A stretch of 64,000 nt of DNA from a phage. Of the stretch, positions 10,639 through 62,284 are shown one piece after another (within the stretch, counting starts at the first letter, position 1; each line of letters opens with the position of its first letter). The stretch is taken from the NCBI GenBank assembly GCA_025284135.1, contig GCA_025284135.1_3646.1. The stretch is one strand, 5' to 3'. The notes below the pieces were generated by a model. The model had not been told where the DNA came from, did not search any database, and was given only the letters and a program-made list of their open reading frames with translations. A program made the translations under genes and the position numbers.

Positions 10639-11484
10639 GTGAAGCGAACCGTCTACCCAGTCGAGTATGATCCTCTATTAAGAGTTTTCAACAATCAGTT
10701 AAGTTTTTATCAATTTTTAGCACAATATAACCCAGAAATCAATGTTGGTTTATCAGCCCTGCTGCCGCCAACAGAATTCGTTATTGGCAGTGTGCACTAT
10801 CCATGCAGAACGATTGTAGACTTCTTCCAGAAGATTGCAAAACACACAGGCCTGCCAATTGATACTGGTATTTCAACTATCCGTATGGGTGTTATTCTTC
10901 TGTTCTTCACAGAGAACCTTGATGAAAGCACTTTAACACTGCAAAGTGGGGATGTCAATATCACACTCACCCCGTCAGTGTTTAAAGAGGTAGATGCGGC
11001 TTTCCAAGTTTCCGTGGCAGAGGGCCATCTATGGGACCCTGTAGGGATGCCTAAAAAGGTGACCATAAACGATGAGCAATGCAACGTTGTTTATGAAGAA
11101 GATACCCAAACTTTCACCATTGAGTGGCCTAAGAAACGTTCTCAGGTTGTAAATCTTGGGCTGGTCTCTACGATAGCTCCACCGCCTCAACCAGAGCCGG
11201 AGCCGCCTGTAGGTCCTACTGAACCTGGTGGTGGTGAAGAATCCCAAGGTCCGACTGTACCGGAGGGAGGCACTGAGCAGGATCCTGAACAGGCACAAGA
11301 ATCAAGATCTTCTCGCAGTGATGTTGATGCCCTACTACAGCAGGCCGCAGCTCTTAACAACGAAGATGACAAAAGTGGTTCAAAAGATGCACTCCAAACC
11401 TTCGCCAAAGAGCACGGTGTTACCTTAAGTAAGGCAAAAACTTTCCAAAATATGATGAAAGATTTTGAGGCTGCACTGGCATAA
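10639..11484 (+). CDS. hypothetical virion-associated protein with Pro/Glu-rich linker
   Basis: GTG start with AGGAG RBS; linker PPPQPEPEPPVGPTEPGGGEE. Confidence 0.4.
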   Translation: MKRTVYPVEYDPLLRVFNNQLSFYQFLAQYNPEINVGLSALLPPTEFVIGSVHYPCRTIVDFFQKIAKHTGLPIDTGISTIRMGVILLFFTENLDESTLTLQSGDVNITLTPSVFKEVDAAFQVSVAEGHLWDPVGMPKKVTINDEQCNVVYEEDTQTFTIEWPKKRSQVVNLGLVSTIAPPPQPEPEPPVGPTEPGGGEESQGPTVPEGGTEQDPEQAQESRSSRSDVDALLQQAAALNNEDDKSGSKDALQTFAKEHGVTLSKAKTFQNMMKDFEAALA

Positions 11485-11493
11485 TTTTGTTAA

Positions 11494-11530
11494 GGCCCCT
11501 TCCAAATTAGGAATGGGGCTTTATTTTTAC
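11494..11530 (+). terminator. terminator-like hairpin
   Basis: GCCCC..GGGGC stem followed by TTTATTTTT. Confidence 0.45.
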
Positions 11531-11543
11531 GAGGTATTTTCAA

Positions 11544-12164
11544 ATGGCATGGTATGAAGATGAAGAGATTATCCCGTCCCCGCCTAACCATGATGGTGCA
11601 GTAGATACCCCAGAAGAACCACCAAAAGAAGATCCTGTACCTCCGGAACCTGATCCAGACCAACCTCTTATTAATATTATGAGGTTGTTGCTTGGCAATG
11701 TTGATGAGGAAACCCTCCCTGACGAGGTAATTAAAACATTCCTTGACATGGAGAAGTTGAAACTAAATTATCCGGCAGATCCTGATAAGCTGCCTCTGCT
11801 TAAGTACAATGTGCTTGTGCAGCTTGTGCGGTGGCTGATGATGCAGGAAGTGTCCAGCGGTAATGCAAGTATAACTTCCCGTCTGGAAAAAATAGGTGAT
11901 GAGACCATAGAGATTCGTGGTGGATCTTCCTACGCCCAATGGAAAGATTTCCTTGATTGGCTGCTGGCACACCCAGACTATGTAGATTCTGAGTTAGATG
12001 CTTACAGCAGAATGATTATCATTGGTGGTGTTCGTGTAGACGAAGGAATTCGGGTTAAATTTAATGAAAACAGCAACGGACCGTTCGATGTCCAGGGGAT
12101 TACACCTATCAGTGGTCTAAATAACCAACCTCCTCGCCACCCAAGACGCAAACGCAGTTTTTAA
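11544..12164 (+). CDS. head-tail connector or adaptor candidate
   Basis: Position between head and tail genes; no diagnostic motif. Confidence 0.35.
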   Translation: MAWYEDEEIIPSPPNHDGAVDTPEEPPKEDPVPPEPDPDQPLINIMRLLLGNVDEETLPDEVIKTFLDMEKLKLNYPADPDKLPLLKYNVLVQLVRWLMMQEVSSGNASITSRLEKIGDETIEIRGGSSYAQWKDFLDWLLAHPDYVDSELDAYSRMIIIGGVRVDEGIRVKFNENSNGPFDVQGITPISGLNNQPPRHPRRKRSF

Positions 12165-50817: not shown

Positions 50818-50848
50818 AAAAGGGGCCGTTTGGCCCCTTTCTTTTTAT
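50818..50848. terminator. bidirectional rho-independent terminator between convergent transcription units
   Basis: AAAAAGGGGCC-GTTT-GGCCCCTTTCTTTTT; symmetric A/T flanks. Confidence 0.75.
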
Positions 50849-50850
50849 AA

Positions 50851-51051
50851 TTAGTAATATTCCCAACACGACCCATCTTCAGACGGCTGGACACGCTTAC
50901 CTTCATGATCGACATAGGTGTAACCACAGCCTTCACAGATAACAGGTGCCGCGTAACCTTCCTTCCACTGCTTCTCCGTGATCAGTCCTTTCAGATCTCC
51001 GCAGTCACGACCAAACAACTCTTCAGAGCAATCTTTACAAAAATCAGCCAT
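50851..51051 (-). CDS. small Cys-rich zinc-ribbon-like protein (66 aa)
   Basis: CKDC...C...CEGCGY...C pattern. Confidence 0.45.
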   Translation of the reverse strand: MADFCKDCSEELFGRDCGDLKGLITEKQWKEGYAAPVICEGCGYTYVDHEGKRVQPSEDGSCWEYY

Positions 51052-51054
51052 TTC

Positions 51055-51462
51055 TCAGTCCTCGCATTTAACAAATTTTTCTACAGATCCGCCAAGCACA
51101 GCTTGTTGCTTGATGGCACTTCCTTCATCATAGTGGATAGATTTATGCTCCGTTCCACCAAACTTCCCTGTGTGGAAGGTGTGCACCCAAATCTCTTTGG
51201 GAAGGGATTTATTCTCTTCTTCCACCAACTCCCACATTCCCCATAGGTGATCTGTGATATCTCTGATGAAATATCCCTCGCCGAGGTTTGTATTCACACT
51301 ATAGGCCGATTCGTGAACTGGGTGAGTATAACGGAAGGCAGTGTACTCTTTTCCCGGTGTGAAGTGGGTATCCATTAGTATAGCTGTTAAAGAATAAGGG
51401 TCTCGAAAGCCCAAGAACTTTAGTTTAACAATTTCGACATTCACACTTGCAAGATTCTCCAT
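51055..51462 (-). CDS. hypothetical protein, His-rich (135 aa)
   Basis: Strong RBS GAGGAG; own promoter-like TTGACA upstream on minus strand. Confidence 0.45.
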   Translation of the reverse strand: MENLASVNVEIVKLKFLGFRDPYSLTAILMDTHFTPGKEYTAFRYTHPVHESAYSVNTNLGEGYFIRDITDHLWGMWELVEEENKSLPKEIWVHTFHTGKFGGTEHKSIHYDEGSAIKQQAVLGGSVEKFVKCED

Positions 51463-51625
51463 GACAGTCTCCTCTGTTCGGTTGGTGAGATAATCCTATA
51501 CAAATCTGGTATTGGTGTCAAGCTTAATTTTAAGAGATCTGAGATGGTATTTTATTCAGGAAGGCAATCGCACAGGGTGTGGCAATTTATGAAGGCACAG
51601 GCCTCTTTTGAGGCCTTAAAATCGA

Positions 51626-52006
51626 TTATGACACTTTGACGTAGCGCTCTGACAGAGCTGGAAAGCCAAAAGCAGTACCTATACTGCCGTATGCTACCCA
51701 CCATTGAAGTTCATCGTGACACCATTTTCCGATCAGGAAGATGCTGGGGTATCGGGTCAGTATTTTGGCATAAGCTTTAGGGTCTGCATCTTCTGGGATA
51801 ATGATACTTGGAACATCTTTGTTATGACCACAGCAGCAGTTTAGAGTTTTCAATCCTGCCGCCCATAGACTCATGATAGGCTTAGCCATGCACTTATCAA
51901 GGCACACACGTTTTTTGCCGTCACGGAGCTTTTTAGGCACATCAACGATAACATTTTGATGCTTGGCACCTTTCACTTTCCAATTATAGGATTTACACTT
52001 GCACAT
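51626..52006 (-). CDS. Cys-rich putative zinc-binding protein (126 aa)
   Basis: CKCK, CLDKC, NCCCGHN, WCHDE Cys/His clusters. Confidence 0.45.
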   Translation of the reverse strand: MCKCKSYNWKVKGAKHQNVIVDVPKKLRDGKKRVCLDKCMAKPIMSLWAAGLKTLNCCCGHNKDVPSIIIPEDADPKAYAKILTRYPSIFLIGKWCHDELQWWVAYGSIGTAFGFPALSERYVKVS

Positions 52007-52203
52007 TTAATCAGTCTCCATCTAGAAAGCAATACTTTACTTAAAATCTTTGTCACCTATTACGATTGCACGAATCCACTCATTGTGATGTTCGATGGCG
52101 GTAAGGTGCAACATAATGCAGTGATTGTCATTACCAAACACGGTGCGGTAAGCTTTAGCAGCACCATGATATAACTTCCACATCAGGTAATGATATCTTC
52201 GCC

Positions 52204-52683
52204 TCATGGCTCTTTCTCCGGTTCAGGATCTGGGTAATCTTCAATAATAAAAGGCCATCCATTACGCTTTGCTTCAGACTTATACTTAATCTCCTTCATT
52301 GCAAACTCTAATTGATTCTTAGCCGGAATACATGCCGGAGAATCATCAATCCAGATATCTGGGTAGATATCAAACTGCGCCAGATAGGCTGCCTTCTGAA
52401 CACCTCCAGTATAAAACACACCAACATCAAGCTCCTTGCGCCAATACTCAATGTCTACATTGTCTTGAGTAATGAATCGGAAAGTCACAAGGTAGACTGC
52501 CCACCCCTCCTTCTTCAGATCTCTGATCAGGCGGGAGAAGATGAAAGGACTCGCATTAAATGTTCCATCAAAGTCAATGGCAATGATGTGCGTTCCGTGG
52601 CGAGTCTCATATGGATTGCTTGTGGTAAGATTGCTGTAGTTAAAAGGGACCTCTTCCCCGCAGTAGCTGTAGTCCATATTCAC
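52204..52683 (-). CDS. HAD-superfamily phosphatase (nucleotidase-like)
   Basis: HAD motif I IAIDFDGTF, motif II LVTFR, motif IV IWIDDSP. Confidence 0.6.
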   Translation of the reverse strand: MNMDYSYCGEEVPFNYSNLTTSNPYETRHGTHIIAIDFDGTFNASPFIFSRLIRDLKKEGWAVYLVTFRFITQDNVDIEYWRKELDVGVFYTGGVQKAAYLAQFDIYPDIWIDDSPACIPAKNQLEFAMKEIKYKSEAKRNGWPFIIEDYPDPEPEKEP

Positions 52684-52955
52684 ACCTTCTCGTTGATAAA
52701 TTTACGGGCGGTTTGGTGAGTTGTTTCTGCTGTCTTCAGAATGATATTAATTTTATCGTCAAGATCATTCATCTCAGCAGTTAATTCAGGAATCTCCCCG
52801 GCATGCATGGTGAAATCATACATAGACATGCCCAGGATCTCATTGATTCGGCGGTTGCATTCTGCAGCACGTTGGTTCATTTTCCAAGCTAACACCAGAG
52901 CCTCTTGCGTAGCCTCCAGTGCAAAGTCTAATACGTCGGCTTCTTCTTTCGTCAT
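52680..52955 (-). CDS. hypothetical protein (91 aa)
   Basis: ORF with overlapping stop/start to neighbour. Confidence 0.4.
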   Translation of the reverse strand: MTKEEADVLDFALEATQEALVLAWKMNQRAAECNRRINEILGMSMYDFTMHAGEIPELTAEMNDLDDKINIILKTAETTHQTARKFINEKV

Positions 52956-53010
52956 CTCAGTCTCTCTTGTTGTATTGTTAGTAGGTGCATGAACACCTTA
53001 TATCTTACTT

Positions 53011-53577
53011 TTATTCAAACTGCAATAGCAAGTCCACCACCGCACTAGGCCTGTCAACAAATTCCCCAGGCCCACATGCCCATAGAGGGTATCCATCAAC
53101 ATACCGCCATATCCAACCTGCAGTGTGAAGTTCAAGCAGGGCAGTGCCGTCCTTACTGTCAACCACCCTTTCCCACAGTGTTGGGCAGCGAAGCTTGAGA
53201 ATCGGGTCCCCGCCCTTATACCCATCCATGTAGATACCCATTGCAAAGTTCAGCATCATCTTTTTGTGCACTGATCTCTTATTGAGAGTGCTCATCACTT
53301 CCTCTTTGTGAATGTTTGTAAGCTTCTCTCTGGCTACCCGCAGATCGTTGCAACCATTGTTCAGAAGATCTTCCAGGCACTTGATCCGAAGGTCGTGAAT
53401 GTCTTTGTCGTGTACCGTTGGCACAGGGTCGTAGCGGTATAGCACTGTTGATACAAGATTGCTCGGGTGTGGGTCTGACAGCAACCCATAACCCCAATAC
53501 TCTTCTGTATCTGAAAGGACAAGACACCCAATATCTCTGTCAAGCTTTCCTGTGTTGTAAGCCACATTGACAGCCAT
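53011..53577 (-). CDS. hypothetical protein (188 aa)
   Basis: ORF in tightly packed minus-strand operon. Confidence 0.45.
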   Translation of the reverse strand: MAVNVAYNTGKLDRDIGCLVLSDTEEYWGYGLLSDPHPSNLVSTVLYRYDPVPTVHDKDIHDLRIKCLEDLLNNGCNDLRVAREKLTNIHKEEVMSTLNKRSVHKKMMLNFAMGIYMDGYKGGDPILKLRCPTLWERVVDSKDGTALLELHTAGWIWRYVDGYPLWACGPGEFVDRPSAVVDLLLQFE

Positions 53578-53579
53578 GG

Positions 53580-53825
53580 CTATAGCTCCACTAGCAAAGT
53601 GCTTTCAAAGTGCCGTTCATGCAAACCGTTGTAAGGGACCACTTCTACAACGCCATCACGGACATATGGGGCCATCATGGTGGTATAATCTCCAAACGGG
53701 TTGGTATTGTCACTAACCACAACCACCTTCTGCCCTTCCTTGGCAGAGTGCCAAATAGATCTGCACTTCATCAGGTGTTCGAGAGCTCCAGGTAAAATTT
53801 TGTTACGTTCTTTACGGGTCTTCAT
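53580..53825 (-). CDS. hypothetical protein (81 aa)
   Basis: ORF, operon context. Confidence 0.4.
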   Translation of the reverse strand: MKTRKERNKILPGALEHLMKCRSIWHSAKEGQKVVVVSDNTNPFGDYTTMMAPYVRDGVVEVVPYNGLHERHFESTLLVEL

Positions 53826-54271
53826 AACAGATATAGCTCCTTATGAAAGTGGTCTTTTAATTTCTCACTGAGAAACTTCTTGATACCTTCCTCTAAAGTG
53901 TTTTCGATGTAGTCCAGCTTAACTGCCTCGATGGACATATCATAGATCGCCAGCTCTAAGCTGTCAAGTCCCATCATAGCATGAACCATAAGATTTTCAT
54001 CTTCAGATACATTCAGGGGACTCCCTATAACATCTGTAGGTAGGATAGTTTCCCAATTATTCTGGGGGGTAGTTCTCCCGCCATCCACTTTACGGCGCAG
54101 TTCGAAGGTGTTTTTAGTGTAGAACACTTCATAGGAAACGATACGACTGTCGCTCTCATAATAAACGAAGTTCAGGTAGGAGCCTAGCCGCAGTCGGCAA
54201 ACTTCTACCCCAAACCATTGTTTCTTATAAGAATTCAGGCTAATGCTGTCGCATTCACGCTTGCTCAACAC
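53822..54271 (-). CDS. hypothetical protein (149 aa)
   Basis: ORF, operon context. Confidence 0.45.
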   Translation of the reverse strand: MLSKRECDSISLNSYKKQWFGVEVCRLRLGSYLNFVYYESDSRIVSYEVFYTKNTFELRRKVDGGRTTPQNNWETILPTDVIGSPLNVSEDENLMVHAMMGLDSLELAIYDMSIEAVKLDYIENTLEEGIKKFLSEKLKDHFHKELYLL

Positions 54272-54287
54272 GGCTATCTCCTTTTTG

Positions 54288-54521
54288 TTAATCTTCGTAA
54301 ATCAGGATTTCTGCTTTAGGTTTTCGTGCTTTCAGGTCCAGCTCTATCCAGTGCACCATAGCTGTTTCAAGAAAAACAGCTTGGATGCATCCGTCCTCAG
54401 CGTGCCCCACCAACATAACAAGATCTTCACATTCGTCATCTGCATCACGAACATACAGAATCTCTCCAGATTCAAAGTCTTTCACAACCTGATTGCTGGA
54501 TAATTTACGAATTTTTGCCAT
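54288..54521 (-). CDS. hypothetical protein (77 aa)
   Basis: ORF, operon context. Confidence 0.4.
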   Translation of the reverse strand: MAKIRKLSSNQVVKDFESGEILYVRDADDECEDLVMLVGHAEDGCIQAVFLETAMVHWIELDLKARKPKAEILIYED

Positions 54522-54522
54522 A

Positions 54523-54786
54523 TCAGAAACCCTCTAAAAAGCTCTTGTAGAAAATAATTTCAGTGTCCACACCTGTCACGATCTTATCGTTTCGGATCTC
54601 ATCTGTGAGGTAGGTATCGAAACGTAGTACTTGTGTGGTATTGTCACACATCCACTCAGCTGTGACCATTGCGAAAATCTTAGCATCTTCATTATCTGGT
54701 GTGAATGTTACCACCTCGCCGCACTTAAACTTTTCGATAGGTTGAGTGTTAGCTTTCGGTTCTGCGATAGTGATTTTCGTGGTCAT
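54523..54786 (-). CDS. hypothetical protein (87 aa)
   Basis: ORF, operon context. Confidence 0.4.
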   Translation of the reverse strand: MTTKITIAEPKANTQPIEKFKCGEVVTFTPDNEDAKIFAMVTAEWMCDNTTQVLRFDTYLTDEIRNDKIVTGVDTEIIFYKSFLEGF

Positions 54787-55052
54787 TACTCTTCCTCCAT
54801 AGTTTCACCAAATACTTCGATACGAGCATCGAGCTCGGTTGCTTTCAGCTCCCCAACAAAATCTTTTAGTTCTTTCTCGTCCAGATCGTAAGCCCACACA
54901 CAAGAAGAACATGCAGATTTCACAATCAGCAGAGTAGATACCTGTCCTGACTCTGTAATCAGGCTCACAACAGTTCCCACAGGGAACGTGTTGAGAGCTT
55001 TTTTAACCGGGCGCTCAGCTTTAATTACTACCTCTGTTGCCATAAATAACAC
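54786..55052 (-). CDS. hypothetical protein (88 aa)
   Basis: ORF, operon context. Confidence 0.4.
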   Translation of the reverse strand: MLFMATEVVIKAERPVKKALNTFPVGTVVSLITESGQVSTLLIVKSACSSCVWAYDLDEKELKDFVGELKATELDARIEVFGETMEEE

Positions 55053-55058
55053 CCTTTC

Positions 55059-56540
55059 TTACTTAGCGTACTCGATTAATTCCACAGTTTTCCCAAAGCT
55101 CGGGATATAATTTTTATTATACCCTTCGGTGAGAACCCACAAAGTATCGTACTTTTTCCACTTGTTGTCAACAGCCTTTTGTTCAAAGTTATGCTCAAAG
55201 TATAGGTCGGTCAGGACGATGACATCTTTTGCATTCGGTATGTTGGCATCCAAATACTCGAACACGCAAGCAGCTGTTGTGCCCCATGTTGAGTGGACCT
55301 CATAGTTGATCATCTCGTCTATGTTGCCGCGAGTATATACTTTAACCTCTCCGACTTCAGTTGACCAACAGAACATTGTAACCTTAAACTCTTTATACAG
55401 GTTGCACAATCCGGTGATTTCATTGAACATTTTCTTTAAAGTTCTTTGAGAGATCGAGCCAGAAACGTCTAAAGCCACCACAATATCTATAGTGTTTTCC
55501 GGATTACGACCCGGAACAATAACGTGTTGGTTCTTGTTTATAGCTCCAACTTTTCGCATTGTGCTGGTCAAAGACCCAGATCGGCGACCAGGTTTTCTGT
55601 AGGTCAGTTCGGCCTTTCGTTTAGACAACATGCGTTGCTTGATGATGTCTATATAATTGATTACAGGCTTACCTCTGTTCTTGACAAACTCACGAACCGC
55701 CTCAGGGCAACGACCTCCGGAAGCTTGCATTGCTGCCTCCAGCATGTCACCAGAGTCCTGCATGGCCTGATCTTTATCAGATTGGCTGATTACAGGTTGT
55801 GGCTGATCATACCCCATAGCCTTTCCAAGATCATCACTAGTGCCACCGTTCCCACTCATGTGATCATCGGTTTGTCGCTTATCACCTTGAGAGTTCTCAC
55901 CTTTACCGTTCTTACTTTTACCGTTATTTTGATCTCTTTGCTTATCAAGAACTGCATAAACGTTCTCAGCAATCCATCCATGAAACTTCATGTCGCAGTA
56001 GCAGCTGGCTAAGAAGCCAAAAGGCTTACCTTTTACGAACGTAGTGCTTTTCCCTTTTGGGAAGAAAACACAAGGAGGCTTGCTAAAGTCAACCACAAGG
56101 CCTGTGTTGATGACGTGATCACAAGCAATGTTGAACAGTTCCGGTTCAAAGCTTTTACCACGGACCAGGTGATCACAGATAATATGTCCCACCTCATGTG
56201 ACAGAAGAAAGGCCACCTCTTTCACAGATTTGGGGGAATAGAAAACCTCAGCCATCTCAAACTGCCCGTCAGTTAGAGAAGCCTTAAGAATAGCCTTGCG
56301 TTCATCAGCCAACCCCATAATGAACTCAGGACTGTAATAGATGCGTTTATGGTCGGTTGCCATGGTGGAGCACCATGTGTGGTTTTCTACGAACTGCAAC
56401 CCTGACAGTAGCGTGCCATAAAACGGCAGCTTTTCAAGAAGATACATACGTGCAGCTTGCAACATTCTCAGGGCATCATCTTTCTGTGAGGCAATGATTT
56501 CTGAACTTCTGCTATCCATTAAAACTCCAGAAGGGGCCAT
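55059..56540 (-). CDS. vWA-domain protein with N-terminal HExxH metallopeptidase-like domain
   Basis: HExxH in LLSHEVGHIICDHL; MIDAS motif D-x-S-G-S in VVALDVSGSIS; low-complexity acidic/Gly linker between domains. Confidence 0.7.
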   Translation of the reverse strand: MAPSGVLMDSRSSEIIASQKDDALRMLQAARMYLLEKLPFYGTLLSGLQFVENHTWCSTMATDHKRIYYSPEFIMGLADERKAILKASLTDGQFEMAEVFYSPKSVKEVAFLLSHEVGHIICDHLVRGKSFEPELFNIACDHVINTGLVVDFSKPPCVFFPKGKSTTFVKGKPFGFLASCYCDMKFHGWIAENVYAVLDKQRDQNNGKSKNGKGENSQGDKRQTDDHMSGNGGTSDDLGKAMGYDQPQPVISQSDKDQAMQDSGDMLEAAMQASGGRCPEAVREFVKNRGKPVINYIDIIKQRMLSKRKAELTYRKPGRRSGSLTSTMRKVGAINKNQHVIVPGRNPENTIDIVVALDVSGSISQRTLKKMFNEITGLCNLYKEFKVTMFCWSTEVGEVKVYTRGNIDEMINYEVHSTWGTTAACVFEYLDANIPNAKDVIVLTDLYFEHNFEQKAVDNKWKKYDTLWVLTEGYNKNYIPSFGKTVELIEYAK

Positions 56541-56552
56541 TGGCCCCTGTCA

Positions 56553-57530
56553 TTATTTAACGTGTTTGAAAATACCTGCCAACTCGGTCATTGTCATGCG
56601 GGTGGTCTTCATAAGATCTGTCATAGCTTTCTCCATAATTGGAGATACTACCATAAAGTTTCCTTTAGTGAAACCTTTATTCCAGTCGGTCACCAACAGT
56701 GGTTTAAGTCCAGCTCCGAGACGTTCACCAGTTAAAGCACAGCATTTGCGAATATACGAACTCTTAAATTGGCTGAACGACAGATCAACTTTCATACCTG
56801 CATCGTAGAACGTTTGACAATAGAAAGTGTAAGCCTTAGCAATCTCAACATCATCAGGCAGTGCAGGAACTTCTTCTGCAATACCCTCTTCGACCTCCTG
56901 AGGATCTTTTTCCTCTTCAGAGTTCTGTTCTTCAATTTCTTCTGTCACAGTCTCGTTTACGATGTCTGAAATGTGTTTGTTGGCTGCACGATCAGCCATG
57001 AAATTTTTAAAGTCCTGCATTGGTGACATATCTTCCTCCTCTTCGTCAAATAGTGCTAGTTTATCTTCTTCTGTCCCGTATTGCAAGATGAAATCTTCAA
57101 AAGTATAATCACCTTTCAATTTCTCCATACGCTCTTCGCTCAGGTGGAGCATCATCTGCTGGACAATTTTTCGATCAGTTTTGTCTTTTATCAAGATTGC
57201 AGTCTTTTTATCTACCAGACAGTCCTTCAGAGCGTTGCACCTCAATCCCACCACACAACAATTATCAATTGAGTAAGGACCTTCATCATCTATCCGCTCC
57301 AGAGATGGATAGAAAGGATTTCCCAGCCCGTTTTCATCTGTGTGCATGTCAAAAGGTATAAGGGTGTAATCGCACACTCCATCTCCTAAAAGTTTTTTAC
57401 CAAATAGGAGGTATTCTTCCCATGACAGGTTGAACTCTATATCCCGTTTCCGTGCATTATTCTGTTTGCGTCTATATTTTTTGAGCAGGCGCTCTAACTC
57501 TTCTGGTGTATAATATTTTTCAAGATTCAT
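56553..57530 (-). CDS. hypothetical protein with acidic linker and two degenerate HNH_3-like segments (start moved to ATG at 57530)
   Basis: Track start 57596 would overlap the promoter; segments SLERIDDEGPYSIDNCCVV and LVTDWNKGFTKGNFMVV; acidic stretch EEEEDMSPMQDF...EEIEEQNSEEEKDPQEVEE. Confidence 0.45.
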   Translation of the reverse strand: MNLEKYYTPEELERLLKKYRRKQNNARKRDIEFNLSWEEYLLFGKKLLGDGVCDYTLIPFDMHTDENGLGNPFYPSLERIDDEGPYSIDNCCVVGLRCNALKDCLVDKKTAILIKDKTDRKIVQQMMLHLSEERMEKLKGDYTFEDFILQYGTEEDKLALFDEEEEDMSPMQDFKNFMADRAANKHISDIVNETVTEEIEEQNSEEEKDPQEVEEGIAEEVPALPDDVEIAKAYTFYCQTFYDAGMKVDLSFSQFKSSYIRKCCALTGERLGAGLKPLLVTDWNKGFTKGNFMVVSPIMEKAMTDLMKTTRMTMTELAGIFKHVK

Positions 57531-57561
57531 GAGTTGTCTCTTGTGCTCTGTAGGTGAAGAA

Positions 57562-57590
57562 ATCTTATCAAGTGCCTCAACAGATGTCAA
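57562..57590 (-). promoter_or_regulatory. sigma70-like promoter (minus strand) TTGACA-N17-TAAGAT
   Basis: Reverse complement of about 57562-57590 reads TTGACATCTGTTGAGGCACTTGATAAGAT. Confidence 0.45.
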
Positions 57591-57603
57591 CCTCAAAAAC
57601 GTG

Positions 57604-57632
57604 TTGACTTTACCCTAAATCCACGATATAGT
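57604..57632 (+). promoter_or_regulatory. sigma70-like promoter TTGACT-N17-TATAGT
   Basis: Near-consensus hexamers with 17-nt spacer, back-to-back with the minus-strand promoter. Confidence 0.5.
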
Positions 57633-57672
57633 GCACCCATTCGAAAGAAAACGAACACAGGAGTACTTAATC

Positions 57673-58584
57673 ATGGCAAATCTTAACAGCTTTAGCACTC
57701 GGTGGAAACAAGATATCACAACCAATCTCTCAGCAGGCGATATCCTTTCTGCAATTTACGAGGCTTTGGATGATAAAGCTACTTCAAAAGCGGTTTGTAC
57801 CAACCCACTAATTCCTGTAGTGATGAAGGTTATTGAGCGTAGATTGGTATCTGGGTCTGATAAGTGGACATATTTAGATAATGAAGGACACACCTATTCC
57901 AATGGGTACGTCGATATAAAAGTAGAATACGCGGTATCATACCGCCGGAGCGGTTCTGTAACTTTCAACTTCTCTGGAGGTTTTCGATCTCTGGCTACCT
58001 CACCTTTTGTTTCCTCAGAGGAGAAGTATGAGCTTCCATTTCTTTGGATGATGGCTAACGCGACAGGAAAAACCCCCGTTAGCATCCGAGTAAAATACAA
58101 CTACAACGGATCTAGTAAGATCTATGCCGAGAGTGTCTCAGCAAGTTTTTATTTTGTGATGGGGGATGGAATCCTCAAACATATAAAGATGTGCGATATG
58201 CATGATGTTATAAATGAAGTGACTGATAAGAATGTTCTGGTGAAGGATCTCAACAATTTTTATACACCCGGAGACTATTACGTCAGCCGTCCACTGTGCA
58301 TCTTTAATGCCGCACACCCTCTAGGTGAGTATTTGATCGCCAATAGCGATATTGCCAATAACCGCTTCGAGGTAGCAAGAGTACAGAATGAGGTATTGAC
58401 ATCTTGCAAGAGCGGTGATAAGTTTACCGAAGAAGAGATGGGTGTTTTAGAAATGATGGGATATAAGTGTAGCCTTTGGGTAGATGAGGTGTTTAATGAT
58501 TGCATCTATGGACAGGATATTTACCCATTAAAGAAGTATACTGATTCCAGTTTAATATTTGACTATGATGAAGTCATGTGGTAG
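57673..58584 (+). CDS. hypothetical protein (304 aa; start moved to ATG 57673)
   Basis: Track GTG start 57631 lies inside the -10 element; ATG 57673 has AGGAG RBS at 9-nt spacing. Confidence 0.5.
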   Translation: MANLNSFSTRWKQDITTNLSAGDILSAIYEALDDKATSKAVCTNPLIPVVMKVIERRLVSGSDKWTYLDNEGHTYSNGYVDIKVEYAVSYRRSGSVTFNFSGGFRSLATSPFVSSEEKYELPFLWMMANATGKTPVSIRVKYNYNGSSKIYAESVSASFYFVMGDGILKHIKMCDMHDVINEVTDKNVLVKDLNNFYTPGDYYVSRPLCIFNAAHPLGEYLIANSDIANNRFEVARVQNEVLTSCKSGDKFTEEEMGVLEMMGYKCSLWVDEVFNDCIYGQDIYPLKKYTDSSLIFDYDEVMW

Positions 58585-59891: not shown

Positions 59892-60161
59892 ATGTTATAC
59901 CAGCAATATGAACTTCGTGCAGAAAAAGAGTTAAATTTTGACAAAGATATTCACAGATATTATTATGGGAAAGTTAGAGGGCAAGCAAGAAAGTGTACTC
60001 CAACACTCTTTTATGCCAGCAGACGACTAGCGCCAGAAGAGGCAACAGCAGAAAGGGTTGCGTACAACTGGAGAGTCACGTATGATATTGACAGATCCGA
60101 TGTGATATCTGTTTTGGAAAACTTTGAAAACACTTACACACAAGTAGAGGACTTTTACTAA
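59892..60161 (+). CDS. hypothetical protein (89 aa)
   Basis: ORF with AAGGAG RBS. Confidence 0.45.
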   Translation: MLYQQYELRAEKELNFDKDIHRYYYGKVRGQARKCTPTLFYASRRLAPEEATAERVAYNWRVTYDIDRSDVISVLENFENTYTQVEDFY

Positions 60162-61345
60162 TGTCAAGAAACGTATTTGAAAGTGGTCAAATCACTGTCC
60201 GTGAGTTGCCAGCTATCATTCAGTTTGCCCAGCGTCATAACCGATCTGTCCTGATTTTAGGACCAATGGGCGTGGGAAAGAGCCGGGTGATGAAGCAGAT
60301 CGCAGACAATATGTTCGGTGAGCGAGATGACAACTTGGTTGACGTGCGGTTGTCAGATAAAGATCCTGCCGACTTATCTGGGCTACCTATCCCTGTAGAA
60401 GCGGATGGAACTACACGTACAGTGTTTGCAATTCCAGAATTTTGGCCTGCGGATCCTGACTGGAGCGGAATTATCTTTCTGGATGAGCTCACTCATGCAG
60501 ATAACTACCTGCAAAAGGTTGCAATGCAAATTATGCTCGACCACAAGTGCGGTACCTATGCATTCCCTAAAGGTTCTGTTTTTGTGGCTGCTGGTAACCG
60601 TTCTACAGATGGTGCGGTTCTTTCGGCGCTCGAAGCCCCTCTGGCTAACCGTTTTATCATTGTAGAAGTTACAAGCAATGCAGAGGTGTTTATTGAGGAC
60701 TACGCATTCCTTAATGGGGTGCATTCCTCTGTAATTGGATATCTGAAAAGAGTTCCATCAGCTATCGATAATTATGAGGCTATGGCTGAGATTAATTGTC
60801 CATCTTTTGCCACACCGCGATCTTGGGTTGCTGCATCTGATATCTTGCACGATTTTGACAGCGGCATTATTTCTGACGCTATGGCCCGTGTTCTTCTGCA
60901 AGGTGCTATTGGTCACACTGCAGCGGTAGAGATCTGGACTTACCACACCAAGAAACGCAACTTACCGGAAATCGGTCGGATTATGGCAGGAGGTTGCAAA
61001 GAATATGTAGGTCCTAAACAGCCAGACATCTTGTGGATTCTTGGATCTGAAGGTTGTATCGCTATTCGTAATATGATGGAAAATGCAAGTATCTCCGACG
61101 AAGATCTTGTTAGCTGTGTGGCAAACTTCCTCGATTTCCTTTGGGGAAACTTCAAGGATGAGAACCGAGATTTTGTATTCTCAGTCTTTATGGCGATGAT
61201 GAAACCTAATGCCTTAGGAAATGCCTTGCTTATCGGTAAAGGTCGTGACAAGATTGTTGCTCAGCTGATCAAAGCATACCCAAACCTGATGAAGATTGTA
61301 AAAGAGTTTGGTGAAGAGTTTAGCGCCATTTTGGCTAAAGCTTAA
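60161..61345 (+). CDS. MoxR-like AAA+ ATPase
   Basis: Walker A LILGPMGVGKS, Walker B IIFLDELTHA, sensor-1-like VFVAAGNRS, Arg in ALEAPLANRF. Confidence 0.7.
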   Translation: MSRNVFESGQITVRELPAIIQFAQRHNRSVLILGPMGVGKSRVMKQIADNMFGERDDNLVDVRLSDKDPADLSGLPIPVEADGTTRTVFAIPEFWPADPDWSGIIFLDELTHADNYLQKVAMQIMLDHKCGTYAFPKGSVFVAAGNRSTDGAVLSALEAPLANRFIIVEVTSNAEVFIEDYAFLNGVHSSVIGYLKRVPSAIDNYEAMAEINCPSFATPRSWVAASDILHDFDSGIISDAMARVLLQGAIGHTAAVEIWTYHTKKRNLPEIGRIMAGGCKEYVGPKQPDILWILGSEGCIAIRNMMENASISDEDLVSCVANFLDFLWGNFKDENRDFVFSVFMAMMKPNALGNALLIGKGRDKIVAQLIKAYPNLMKIVKEFGEEFSAILAKA

Positions 61346-61783: not shown

Positions 61784-62284
61784 GTGAAAATTAAGATCTT
61801 TGCTATTATTTTGAGCGCATTTTTATCGCTGCCTGTTGTTGCAGCACCAAAACAAAAAGTATACCATACTTGCAAGCCATCAGATACTAAGGAAAACATT
61901 CTAGCATGCAATATCTACAGGGAAGCTAGAGGAGATGGCACGATGGGTATGCTGGCATCTGGGTTTGCCACCCTAAACAGAAAATCTCATCCCAAATACC
62001 CAGACACTATAAGAAAGATTGTCTACCAACCTAATCAGTTTTCGTGGACAAACTACGGCAAAACTTTTAAGGTGACAGAAAAAGATTCATGGGATCACGC
62101 TAAAAGTCTTGCAAAGATGCTTCTAAAGGTCTATAATAACAACCATGTTGCATACATGGCTATGGATATAACAGGTGGAGCAACACACTACCATACAACC
62201 AAAGTACGACCGAAATGGGCAAAAAAGATGCAGAGGACAGCTCAATTCGGGAGCCATATCTACTACAAGGAGCGCAATAAATGA
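61784..62284 (+). CDS. secreted SleB/CwlJ-type cell-wall hydrolase (endolysin candidate)
   Basis: Signal peptide MKIKIFAIILSAFLSLPVVAAP; hydrolase motifs NIYREARGDG, ATLNR, YPDTIRKIVYQPNQFSW. Confidence 0.65.
   Translation: MKIKIFAIILSAFLSLPVVAAPKQKVYHTCKPSDTKENILACNIYREARGDGTMGMLASGFATLNRKSHPKYPDTIRKIVYQPNQFSWTNYGKTFKVTEKDSWDHAKSLAKMLLKVYNNNHVAYMAMDITGGATHYHTTKVRPKWAKKMQRTAQFGSHIYYKERNK

Follow-up and report, generated by a model that had tools for sequence, protein, structure and literature searches.

The region described here is a leftward gene block of about 6.7 kb in a phage contig of 64,000 nucleotides (nt) (GenBank assembly GCA_025284135.1, contig GCA_025284135.1_3646.1). This whole stretch is referred to below as the window. 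Between positions 50851 and 57530, the open reading frame (ORF) listing of the window exhibits 14 non-nested ORFs, all on the minus strand. Four ORF junctions overlap (52204-52207, 52680-52683, 53822-53825 and 54786), and the remaining intergenic gaps are mostly 1-16 nt long. Negative GC skew in the window is confined to 50-58 kb. A preliminary description made from the sequence had reported a tightly packed minus-strand block of about 14 genes with overlapping start and stop codons after a bidirectional terminator, and our listing of 14 ORFs with four overlaps agrees with it. The internal TTGACA site and hairpin placed there at about 51470-51620 are present at 51493-51616. The motifs named there are also found: the CxxC...CxxC cysteines of a 66-aa (amino acid) protein, the eight cysteines of a 126-aa protein, the DFDGT of a HAD protein, and HEVGH with DVSGS in a vWA protein.

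The features needed for the argument below are the following.

50819-50840, bidirectional (no strand assigned): intrinsic terminator that separates the plus-strand gene of the 1874-aa lateral tail fibre from the minus-strand block
51493-51521, minus strand: internal sigma-70-like promoter upstream of g25 and g26 (TTGACA at 51521-51516, 17 nt, TAGGAT at 51498-51493)
51599-51616, minus strand: conserved hairpin (AGGCCTC-AAAA-GAGGCCT), 10 nt past the g24 stop codon
53822-54271, minus strand: g17, 149 aa, lineage-specific, phrog_6790, candidate third component of the g12/ATPase set
55059-56540, minus strand: g12, 493 aa, zincin metallopeptidase (HExxHx4H) and vWA domain with an intact metal ion-dependent adhesion site (MIDAS), N4 gp25-like
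56553-57530, minus strand: g11, 325 aa, Srd family; HNH-like domain at the N-terminus, disordered acidic linker and further beta-beta-alpha domain
57562-57590, minus strand: sigma-70-like unit promoter (TTGACA, 17 nt, TAAGAT with TG extension), P11 of the rV5 annotation
57604-57632, plus strand: sigma-70-like divergent promoter (TTGACT, 17 nt, TATAGT) of the rightward unit that includes the ATPase gene, back to back with the unit promoter
60161-61345, plus strand: AAA+ ATPase annotated MoxR, outside the block, 3.6 kb from g12 on the divergent unit, predicted partner of g12

Identity, conservation and expression of the block

Sequence comparison identifies the window as part of an rV5-like Vequintavirus, a phage of Escherichia coli. 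A megablast search with positions 50851-57600 returned 122 phage records, of which 114 cover at least 80% of the query with 90-97% identity and are syntenic. Each gene of the block has its counterpart in rV5 (ORF26 to ORF11) and in AlexBoehm (bas56_0041-0054). In Bas54 (phage MaxBurger of the BASEL collection, MZ501093) the equivalent unit is bas54_0042-0056, the orthology of the Bas54 genes being confirmed by protein comparison. Its layout is already published: the rV5 genome paper (Kropinski et al. 2013, PMC3606486) proposed four transcription units, one of which, the leftward "genes 11-26" unit, is the present block. The window shares with rV5 and Bas54 an identical gene order, the bidirectional terminator, the divergent promoters and 90-97% DNA identity, and protein identity to Bas54 is 93-100% for every block gene outside the g25 slot. 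Two differences are seen. At the g25 slot the window, rV5 and AlexBoehm carry a 135-aa allele, whereas Bas54 and FFH2 carry a two-gene cassette; and the rV5 record splits g12 by a frameshift. In that record (DQ832317, 7231-8692), a frameshift of 1 nt at about codon 423 yields ORF12 and ORF13. The gene is single and intact in every other genome examined, and the split is probably a sequencing error in the 2006 record. Sixteen unannotated records within MG065644-MG065690, named "Campylobacter phage" (host C. jejuni), are 95-97% identical to the block, and their host label looks doubtful.

Within the genus, the g25 slot is the sole structural polymorphism found, and the block is no variable island at this level. 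Between genera, we compared the homologous regions of PVP-SE1 (Seunavirus), KB57 (Mydovirus), W70 and phiTE (Certrevirus). A g12 homologue is present in all four, g11 and g21 homologues in two each, and a g17 homologue in one by tblastn and additionally in KB57 by PHROG assignment. The other ten block genes are genus-restricted in these comparisons, and across the subfamily four of the 14 genes recur.

All 14 ORFs are genuine genes under purifying selection. The ratio of nonsynonymous to synonymous differences per site (pN/pS), computed against rV5, AlexBoehm and FFH2, is 0.00-0.26 for all of them apart from a lone value of 0.54 that represents three substitutions, and each product has a PHROG family of its own. 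The synonymous component (pS) relative to rV5 reaches 0.44-0.49 in g26 and g22 and lies between 0.00 and 0.27 in the other 12 genes. This unevenness along the block points to recombinational mosaicism. The mechanical ORF of the first gene, g11, begins at a TTG codon (57596); because this codon precedes the gene's own promoter, the likely start is the ATG at 57530, in agreement with the BASEL annotation and with the end position given in the preliminary description. The starts annotated in relatives are slightly shorter for g12 (486 aa) and g21 (154 aa). Gene reality and conservation, as well as the domain content, catalytic motifs and gene neighbourhoods described below, were established in the present analysis.

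The terminator at 50819-50840 has the form AAAGGGGCC-GTTT-GGCCCCTTT, a 9-bp G+C-rich stem with an A-run upstream and a T-run downstream. Its folding yields a free energy (dG) of -19.3 kcal/mol for the minus strand and -16.7 kcal/mol for the plus strand, and bidirectional terminators are annotated at the corresponding site of rV5 (PMC3606486). At the other end, the unit promoter (57590-57562) is a near-consensus sigma-70 promoter with an extended -10 element. The internal promoter (51521-51493) matches the consensus at 10 of 12 positions, and its TTGACA is invariant in rV5, AlexBoehm and FFH2, despite the different downstream cassette in FFH2. The hairpin at 51599-51616 (dG -13.4 kcal/mol, z -3.5) has a stem that is invariant in four phages. 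It lacks a U-tract and is therefore not a canonical intrinsic terminator; candidate roles are a weak terminator or an element of RNA stability or processing.

The motif TGGTAAAATA, found with MEME in the rV5 study and related to T4 late promoters (PMC3606486), bears on the time of transcription. With at most one mismatch, it occurs 18 times in the window against 5.6 expected, and 16 of these copies lie on the plus strand between 4758 and 48906, in the structural module. The block holds one degenerate copy, within the g11 coding sequence. The scarcity of this late-type motif and the presence of consensus sigma-70 promoters both speak for early transcription by the host polymerase. We infer that host RNA polymerase in its unmodified form probably reads the block early, starting from a strong sigma-70 promoter.

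The g12 protein, its putative partners and the Srd-family protein g11

The g12 protein matches two Pfam families, DUF2201_N (2.7e-28) and DUF2201 (3.6e-11), with the motifs HEVGH and DVSGS. We aligned it across eight phage lineages, five of them from Vequintavirinae (four genera and W70, which is unclassified), the others being an N4-like, a jumbo and an Aeromonas phage. The metallopeptidase residues H115, E116, H119 and H124 and the MIDAS residues D358, S360, S362, T421 and D445 are invariant in all eight. The g12 profile also matches the integrin alpha-X I-domain at the MIDAS site (E-value = 6.6e-4). With tblastn, homologues are found in 637 phage records, including proteins named "N4 gp25-like", at identities down to 20-28%.

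The name "HNH endonuclease" given to g12 in PHROG and RefSeq is an annotation error, as the protein exhibits no HNH features. The g12 family, phrog_1314, carries this label, phrog_6790 and phrog_10489 are labelled "tail protein", and the labels have spread to RefSeq (4MG, Mydo, PBECO4, PA26). Looking for support for either label in these three families, we found none. In phiTE, a bona fide HNH homing-type endonuclease gene (11475-11987; phrog_99, 6.5e-46) lies between the MoxR and metallopeptidase-vWA genes, and this insertion may explain the drift of the "HNH" label onto neighbours.

The ATPase encoded at 60161-61345 is 99.2% identical to bas54_0063. In W70, in the N4-like phage Bas96, in the jumbo phage Muenster and in the Aeromonas phage phiA019, the ATPase gene lies directly upstream of the g12 homologue on the same strand, and in phiTE the HNH gene is the single gene that separates the two. 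In Vequintavirus and Seunavirus the ATPase gene stands instead on a divergently transcribed unit, away from g12. Judged from these sequences and neighbourhoods, the vWA/HExxH gene is no accessory of a single lineage but one half of a cassette retained in phages as different as the N4-like and the jumbo groups. That MoxR proteins work together with vWA proteins is well established (PMC7159879). A MoxR and peptidase-vWA chaperone/co-chaperone pair is described for group 2.2 jumbo phages by Iyer et al. (2021), who proposed for it a role in virion assembly (PMC7824862). The two-domain architecture of g12 and its conserved HExxH and MIDAS residues are shared with this jumbo-phage pair and with N4-like gp24/gp25. 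In contrast to the jumbo and N4-like arrangements, Vequintavirus and Seunavirus have the ATPase gene shifted to the divergent unit, and Vequintavirinae carry a g17-family gene after g12, none being seen in the N4-like and jumbo examples inspected.

In PVP-SE1 and KB57, the gene next after the g12 homologue belongs to the g17 family (phrog_6790). A protein of similar size (phrog_12385) occupies that position in W70 and phiTE, and an insertion of g14 to g16 separates g12 from g17 in Vequintavirus. The g17 protein is 97-100% identical in more than 120 sequence clusters, its homologue search returned near-identical sequences alone, and a HMMER scan of 1.8 billion representatives yielded three distant true relatives. 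A "putative holin" label given to g17 in one record, and with it a membrane or holin role, is rejected, since no hydrophobic or membrane segment is predicted in any of the 14 block products.

The g11 product is listed in the rV5 paper as a probable Srd homologue (gp11; PMC3606486). The hhalign comparison of a g11 profile built from nine homologues with T4 Srd gives a probability of 95.9% (E-value = 5.7e-9) over 122 columns. Residues 10-143 of g11 align with residues 6-133 of Srd, with shared motifs including SLER(I/F)D and N...N, and g11 matches phrog_1400 (5.7e-9) and phrog_4592 (3.5e-13). The likeness comprises about 125 N-terminal residues, and both genes lie in regions of non-structural, non-essential genes. 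The difference is one of length and of the remainder of the protein: g11 has 325 aa against 248 aa for Srd, and its linker and second domain do not align with Srd.

In the AlphaFold2 model of g11, residues 1-110 reach predicted local distance difference test scores above 90, residues 165-222 make up the disordered acidic linker, and a second beta-beta-alpha domain is present. Nearly all Foldseek matches are HNH nucleases (PacI, with probability 1.0 and a template-modelling score of 0.54; McrA; Cas9 HNH; Cap5; colicin E7), with weak E-values of at least 0.03. The predicted domain fold thus matches the beta-beta-alpha-Me fold of HNH endonucleases such as PacI, McrA and Cas9 HNH, but the catalytic histidine is missing, no histidine being invariant in the nine-sequence alignment. 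In the motif S76-L-E78-R79-I80-D, Glu78 and Arg79 occupy the position of the HNH catalytic histidine, and only the asparagines N90 and N99 are kept. An HNH-like fold without its catalytic histidine makes "Srd-family pseudo-nuclease" the best description of g11. A PDB search with the single g11 sequence returned noise. An internal duplication detectable by sequence was considered and rejected, BLASTP having found nothing. Variation within the genus is greater in g11 (86-99% identity, indels in the linker) than in the genes around it. Its names in the databases conflict: anti-sigma factor, HNH endonuclease, anti-termination protein and type II restriction endonuclease.

T4 Srd, now read as a stimulator of RNase E and formerly as a "decoy of sigma factors", is reported to stimulate RNase E and so to hasten the decay of host mRNA (Qi et al. 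2015, cited in PMC7430671). T4 Srd is a host-takeover factor, and the profile alignment places g11 in its family. By analogy, g11 would bind a host factor of RNA metabolism (RNase E in T4) and speed the decay of host mRNA, and would not cut DNA.

Insertion phenotypes in Bas54 and the role of the block

The dispensability of the block and its phenotypes on the clinical isolate CFE311 are taken from the literature, namely from the saturated Bas54 transposon libraries of the HIDEN-SEQ preprint (bioRxiv 10.1101/2025.11.20.689424, Extended Data Table 8), which is the source of all insertion data below. On E. coli K-12, 14 of the 15 block genes of Bas54 (bas54_0042-0056) are non-essential (share of TA sites hit, 82-100%), and only the short g25-like gene bas54_0043 is scored differently, as "reduced fitness". 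Insertions cover 60 of 64 TA sites in the ATPase gene and 81 of 86 in g12. The same preprint reports that the MoxR ATPase (bas54_0063) and an unrelated protein encoded outside the window, bas54_0140, are needed against DS-28, a predicted two-gene defence system of CFE311, and that MoxR knockouts are sensitive to cloned DS-28 (bioRxiv 10.1101/2025.11.20.689424). A search of the literature for the mechanism of DS-28 found no mechanistic paper.

The phenotypes on CFE311 are given by the table of K-12 versus CFE311 resampling, which concerns one clinical strain (bioRxiv 10.1101/2025.11.20.689424). On this host the log2 fold change (log2FC) of insertions is -7.23 for the ATPase gene (bas54_0063; adjusted p listed as 0.00000) and -2.20 for g12 (bas54_0055; adjusted p = 0.009). 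For g17 (bas54_0051) it is -2.28 (p = 0.028, adjusted 0.195) and for g16 (bas54_0052) -1.32 (not significant); for g11 and the other block genes it is about 0 (not significant). Insertions in g14 and g15, two genes located between g12 and g17, are without effect, so that simple polarity does not explain the g12 signal. At least one block product, g12, seems to help phage growth on the defended clinical strain.

We consider it fairly probable that the block is a conserved leftward "genes 11-26" unit coding for 14 soluble proteins, dispensable in a permissive laboratory host, in which host-takeover and counter-defence functions are mixed and which does not form one machine. The block is accessory, as in the preliminary description, in that it is dispensable on K-12 (14 of 15 genes in Bas54), but it is no island as regards variability, the gene content being syntenic in 114 of 122 records. 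The early expression suggested there is plausible in view of the unit promoter and the scarcity of the late-type motif. That description had also placed host-takeover or anti-defence functions here. In favour of this are the Srd-family membership of g11, the depletion of g12 on CFE311 and the action of the predicted partner MoxR against DS-28. Against it, a host-dependent phenotype is absent for 12 of the 14 block genes in the one clinical strain with data, and no block product exhibits homology to known anti-defence or defence families. A PADLOC scan of all 14 products and the ATPase gave one noise match and nothing else, and on this basis phage-borne defence genes in the block are rejected. 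The preliminary description had reserved doubt for the case of a block that is both conserved among relatives and made up of nucleotide-metabolism genes. Of these two points the first alone holds: the block is conserved and syntenic in close relatives, but its products are not housekeeping nucleotide-metabolism enzymes; "housekeeping nucleotide metabolism only" is rejected, since g21 alone could fit it. The HIDEN-SEQ data imply that this block of about 6.7 kb can be removed without growth loss on K-12, which would offer cargo space for engineering. The genus is well sampled and is used in therapy cocktails and in O157 biocontrol; the block itself is ordinary.

Several observations weigh against the mixed-unit interpretation. 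Bas54 mutants of g11 exhibit no phenotype on either K-12 or CFE311. The homology of g11 to Srd is limited to the N-terminal half, the C-terminal halves being unaligned. On CFE311 the effect of MoxR exceeds that of g12 about 30-fold, and the g17 depletion is lost after multiple-testing correction. The authors of the preprint did not follow up g12 and named bas54_0140 as the second anti-DS-28 factor (bioRxiv 10.1101/2025.11.20.689424); MoxR may act largely without g12. The sheets Data S6 and S7 of Extended Data Table 8, assigned to CFE303 and CFE311, carry identical numbers and the command line names the 311 sample, so that only one clinical host is documented and the Bas54 results on CFE303 seem to be absent from the file. 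The window ATPase scores below the Pfam cut-offs for AAA_5 and bpMoxR (its phiA019 orthologue passes AAA_5) and below every other Pfam cut-off, and its MoxR class rests on annotation and orthologues. The link between phrog_12385 and phrog_6790 is tentative (W70_32, E-value = 1.7e-3; hhalign probability 34%, E-value = 4e-4, 105 collinear columns). A literature search for a Vequintavirus transcriptome or transcription timing found none. Finally, the fold evidence for g21, described below, does not single out HAD.

Within the mixed-unit interpretation, a mechanism can be proposed for g12, of which we infer the physical partnership, the protein targets and all of the enzymology. The MIDAS site of the g12 vWA domain would capture an acidic residue of the target protein. 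The MoxR-type AAA+ ATPase would then remodel the captured target with ATP, the fused g12 peptidase would cleave it, and g17 would serve as an adaptor, a regulator or a substrate. The target would likely be a host defence or strain-specific factor, because the set in Bas54 matters only on the clinical isolate with DS-28. This view joins the MoxR and peptidase-vWA pair of jumbo phages, the requirement for Bas54 MoxR against DS-28 and the previously unremarked depletion of g12 and g17 in one testable hypothesis, which concerns a cassette present in more than 600 sequenced phages. A more far-reaching proposal, which we hold to be unlikely, is that the ATPase, g12 and g17 form a single ATP-driven capture-and-cleave machine that destroys a DS-28 component. 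If it were true, the cassette of N4-like, rV5-like, Aeromonas and jumbo phages would represent a widespread and unrecognised class of proteolytic counter-defence, rather than an assembly chaperone.

Three other explanations deserve consideration. The whole block could be an anti-defence arsenal, in which most of the small acidic ORFans would each block one particular immune system of the host, much like the early regions of T4 or T7. All genes are dispensable on K-12, seven products are acidic and five of these small, none of the 14 has a predicted membrane segment, and ten of the 14 genes are genus-restricted. The g25 slot, with its swappable cassette and its own promoter, and the movement of g26 between unrelated phage families would also fit an arsenal. 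We nevertheless regard this as improbable. A significant host-dependent defect is seen for g12 only, with g17 marginal, in one clinical strain; the products lack homology to known anti-defence or defence proteins; and the genes are near-invariant and under strong purifying selection over more than 100 isolates, unlike typical arms-race loci.

Alternatively, the depletion of g12 and g17 on CFE311 might be unrelated to MoxR and DS-28 and be due to polarity, to another requirement of that strain or to noise, with g12 acting alone or on phage proteins. The strong difference in effect size (-2.2 versus -7.2) would agree with this, as would the pairing of MoxR with bas54_0140, not g12, by the preprint authors. 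The same holds for the loss of co-transcription of the ATPase gene and g12 in Vequintavirus and for the absence of significance for g17 after correction. However, at least five other phage lineages have the vWA gene next to the ATPase gene (in phiTE with the HNH gene between them), MoxR and vWA proteins are known partners (PMC7159879), and the neutrality of g14 and g15 is contrary to polarity. We regard this explanation as slightly less probable than an arsenal.

Least probable in our judgement is that the MoxR ATPase and g12, with g17, form a chaperone-protease of virion assembly or maturation and that the block consists of non-structural helper genes not directed at the host. This is the role proposed by Iyer et al. 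(2021) for the same fused pair (PMC7824862) and shown in the tail development of the archaeal virus ATV; it agrees with the "tail protein" label that PHROG attaches to the families of g17 and of a nearby gene in PVP-SE1, and the retention of the cassette from N4-like to jumbo phages fits a core function. It is weakened because the cassette is dispensable on K-12, where infective virions form despite insertions in the ATPase gene and g12; moreover, the requirement for these genes appears only on the clinical isolate or with cloned DS-28, the pair sits among nucleotide-metabolism genes and not structural genes in N4-like and jumbo phages, and the text of the rV5 paper names no block product among the proteins of its virion proteomics (PMC3606486).

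Other genes of the block and neighbouring features

For most block genes there is no evidence for any role. The 11 genes not listed above are the following.

50851-51051, minus strand: g26, 66 aa, acidic four-cysteine zinc-ribbon-like protein; rV5 ORF26, bas54_0042; phrog_2210 (1.9e-37)
51055-51462, minus strand: g25, 135 aa, mosaic protein in the variable slot just downstream of the internal promoter
51626-52006, minus strand: g24, 126 aa, basic cysteine-rich protein (eight cysteines, CCCGH), genus-restricted; phrog_12958 only; non-essential
52037-52207, minus strand: g22, 56 aa, basic histidine-rich protein, genus-restricted; phrog_12006; pN/pS 0.00-0.18; non-essential
52204-52683, minus strand: g21, 159 aa, probable cap-less HAD-superfamily phosphatase
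52680-52955, minus strand: g20, 91 aa, acidic, genus-restricted; phrog_12604; non-essential
53011-53577, minus strand: g19, 188 aa, genus-restricted; phrog_12232 only; pN/pS 0.03-0.04; non-essential
53580-53825, minus strand: g18, 81 aa; phrog_4868 (5.7e-33); 100% identical in rV5, AlexBoehm and Bas54; non-essential
54288-54521, minus strand: g16, 77 aa, acidic, genus-restricted; phrog_12046
54523-54786, minus strand: g15, 87 aa, acidic, genus-restricted; phrog_12861; 100% identical in rV5, AlexBoehm and Bas54
54786-55052, minus strand: g14, 88 aa, acidic, genus-restricted; phrog_10698

Eight of the block genes are genus-restricted ORFans. Seven products (g11, g14, g15, g16, g20, g21 and g26) are acidic, with isoelectric points of 4.4-4.7, and five of these are 66-91 aa long. 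An NCBIfam scan of ten products gave noise alone. The g24 protein has no Pfam, NCBIfam, PDB or PADLOC match, and for g20 the searches beyond phrog_12604 gave sub-threshold matches only (spectrin repeat, alanine zipper). The possibility that g14, g15 and g16 are paralogues is rejected, an all-against-all BLASTP comparison having returned no matches.

The g21 protein is a probable small cap-less HAD-type phosphatase, as suggested by its motifs. Its homologue search returned five matches. In an alignment of six sequences (45-66% identity), D37, D39, T41, T67, K97, D113 and D114 are invariant and correspond to all four HAD motifs, including DFDGT. As in the cap-less (C0) HAD phosphatases of the KDO-8-P/KDN-9-P type and in the P-domain of P-type ATPases, these motifs stand in the expected order and at the expected secondary-structure positions. 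Unlike these proteins, g21 does not belong to a sequence model: no Pfam, NCBIfam or PDB match was obtained to curated HAD models, profile searches included. The predicted fold does not discriminate between HAD and other Rossmann folds.

At the downstream end of the block, the cysteines C5, C8, C39 and C42 and the histidine H49 of g26 are invariant in Vequintavirus, in Felixounavirus wV8 and in the T5-like phage phiR2-01 (59-89% identity), and about 190 FelixO1-like records match g26 at the DNA level. The protein has the same 66-aa length and 59-73% identity in Felixounavirus and in a T5-like Epseptimavirus, where the gene lies within the tRNA cluster. It is found at 1477-1677 and at 1458-1658 of two such records. 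Such identity at constant length suggests a small gene exchanged between unrelated virulent enterobacterial phages. In Bas54 the gene (bas54_0042) is non-essential, with 9 of 9 TA sites hit. The present analysis corrects the database names of g11, g12 and g17, and flags this 66-aa zinc ribbon as common to three unrelated virulent phage families.

The PHROG matches of g25 are split, the N-terminal part matching phrog_30425 and the C-terminal part phrog_3955. About 86 records carry the 135-aa g25, and about 30 (FFH2, APECc02, Bas54 and others) carry two genes instead, one for a 62-72-aa protein 48-49% identical to g25 residues 13-82 and one for an unrelated 109-aa protein.

On the rightward unit next to the block, the plus-strand ORF at 57631-58584 is named "putative alpha 1-3 fucosyltransferase" in relatives. 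It has no Pfam match and belongs only to a PHROG of unknown function, and the name appears to trace to a weak BLAST match of 2006. About 440 nt downstream of the ATPase gene, after one 126-aa ORF, the plus-strand ORF at 61784-62284 encodes a cell wall hydrolase of the SleB type (Pfam Hydrolase_2, 4e-19), which is followed in Bas54 by rIIA and rIIB.

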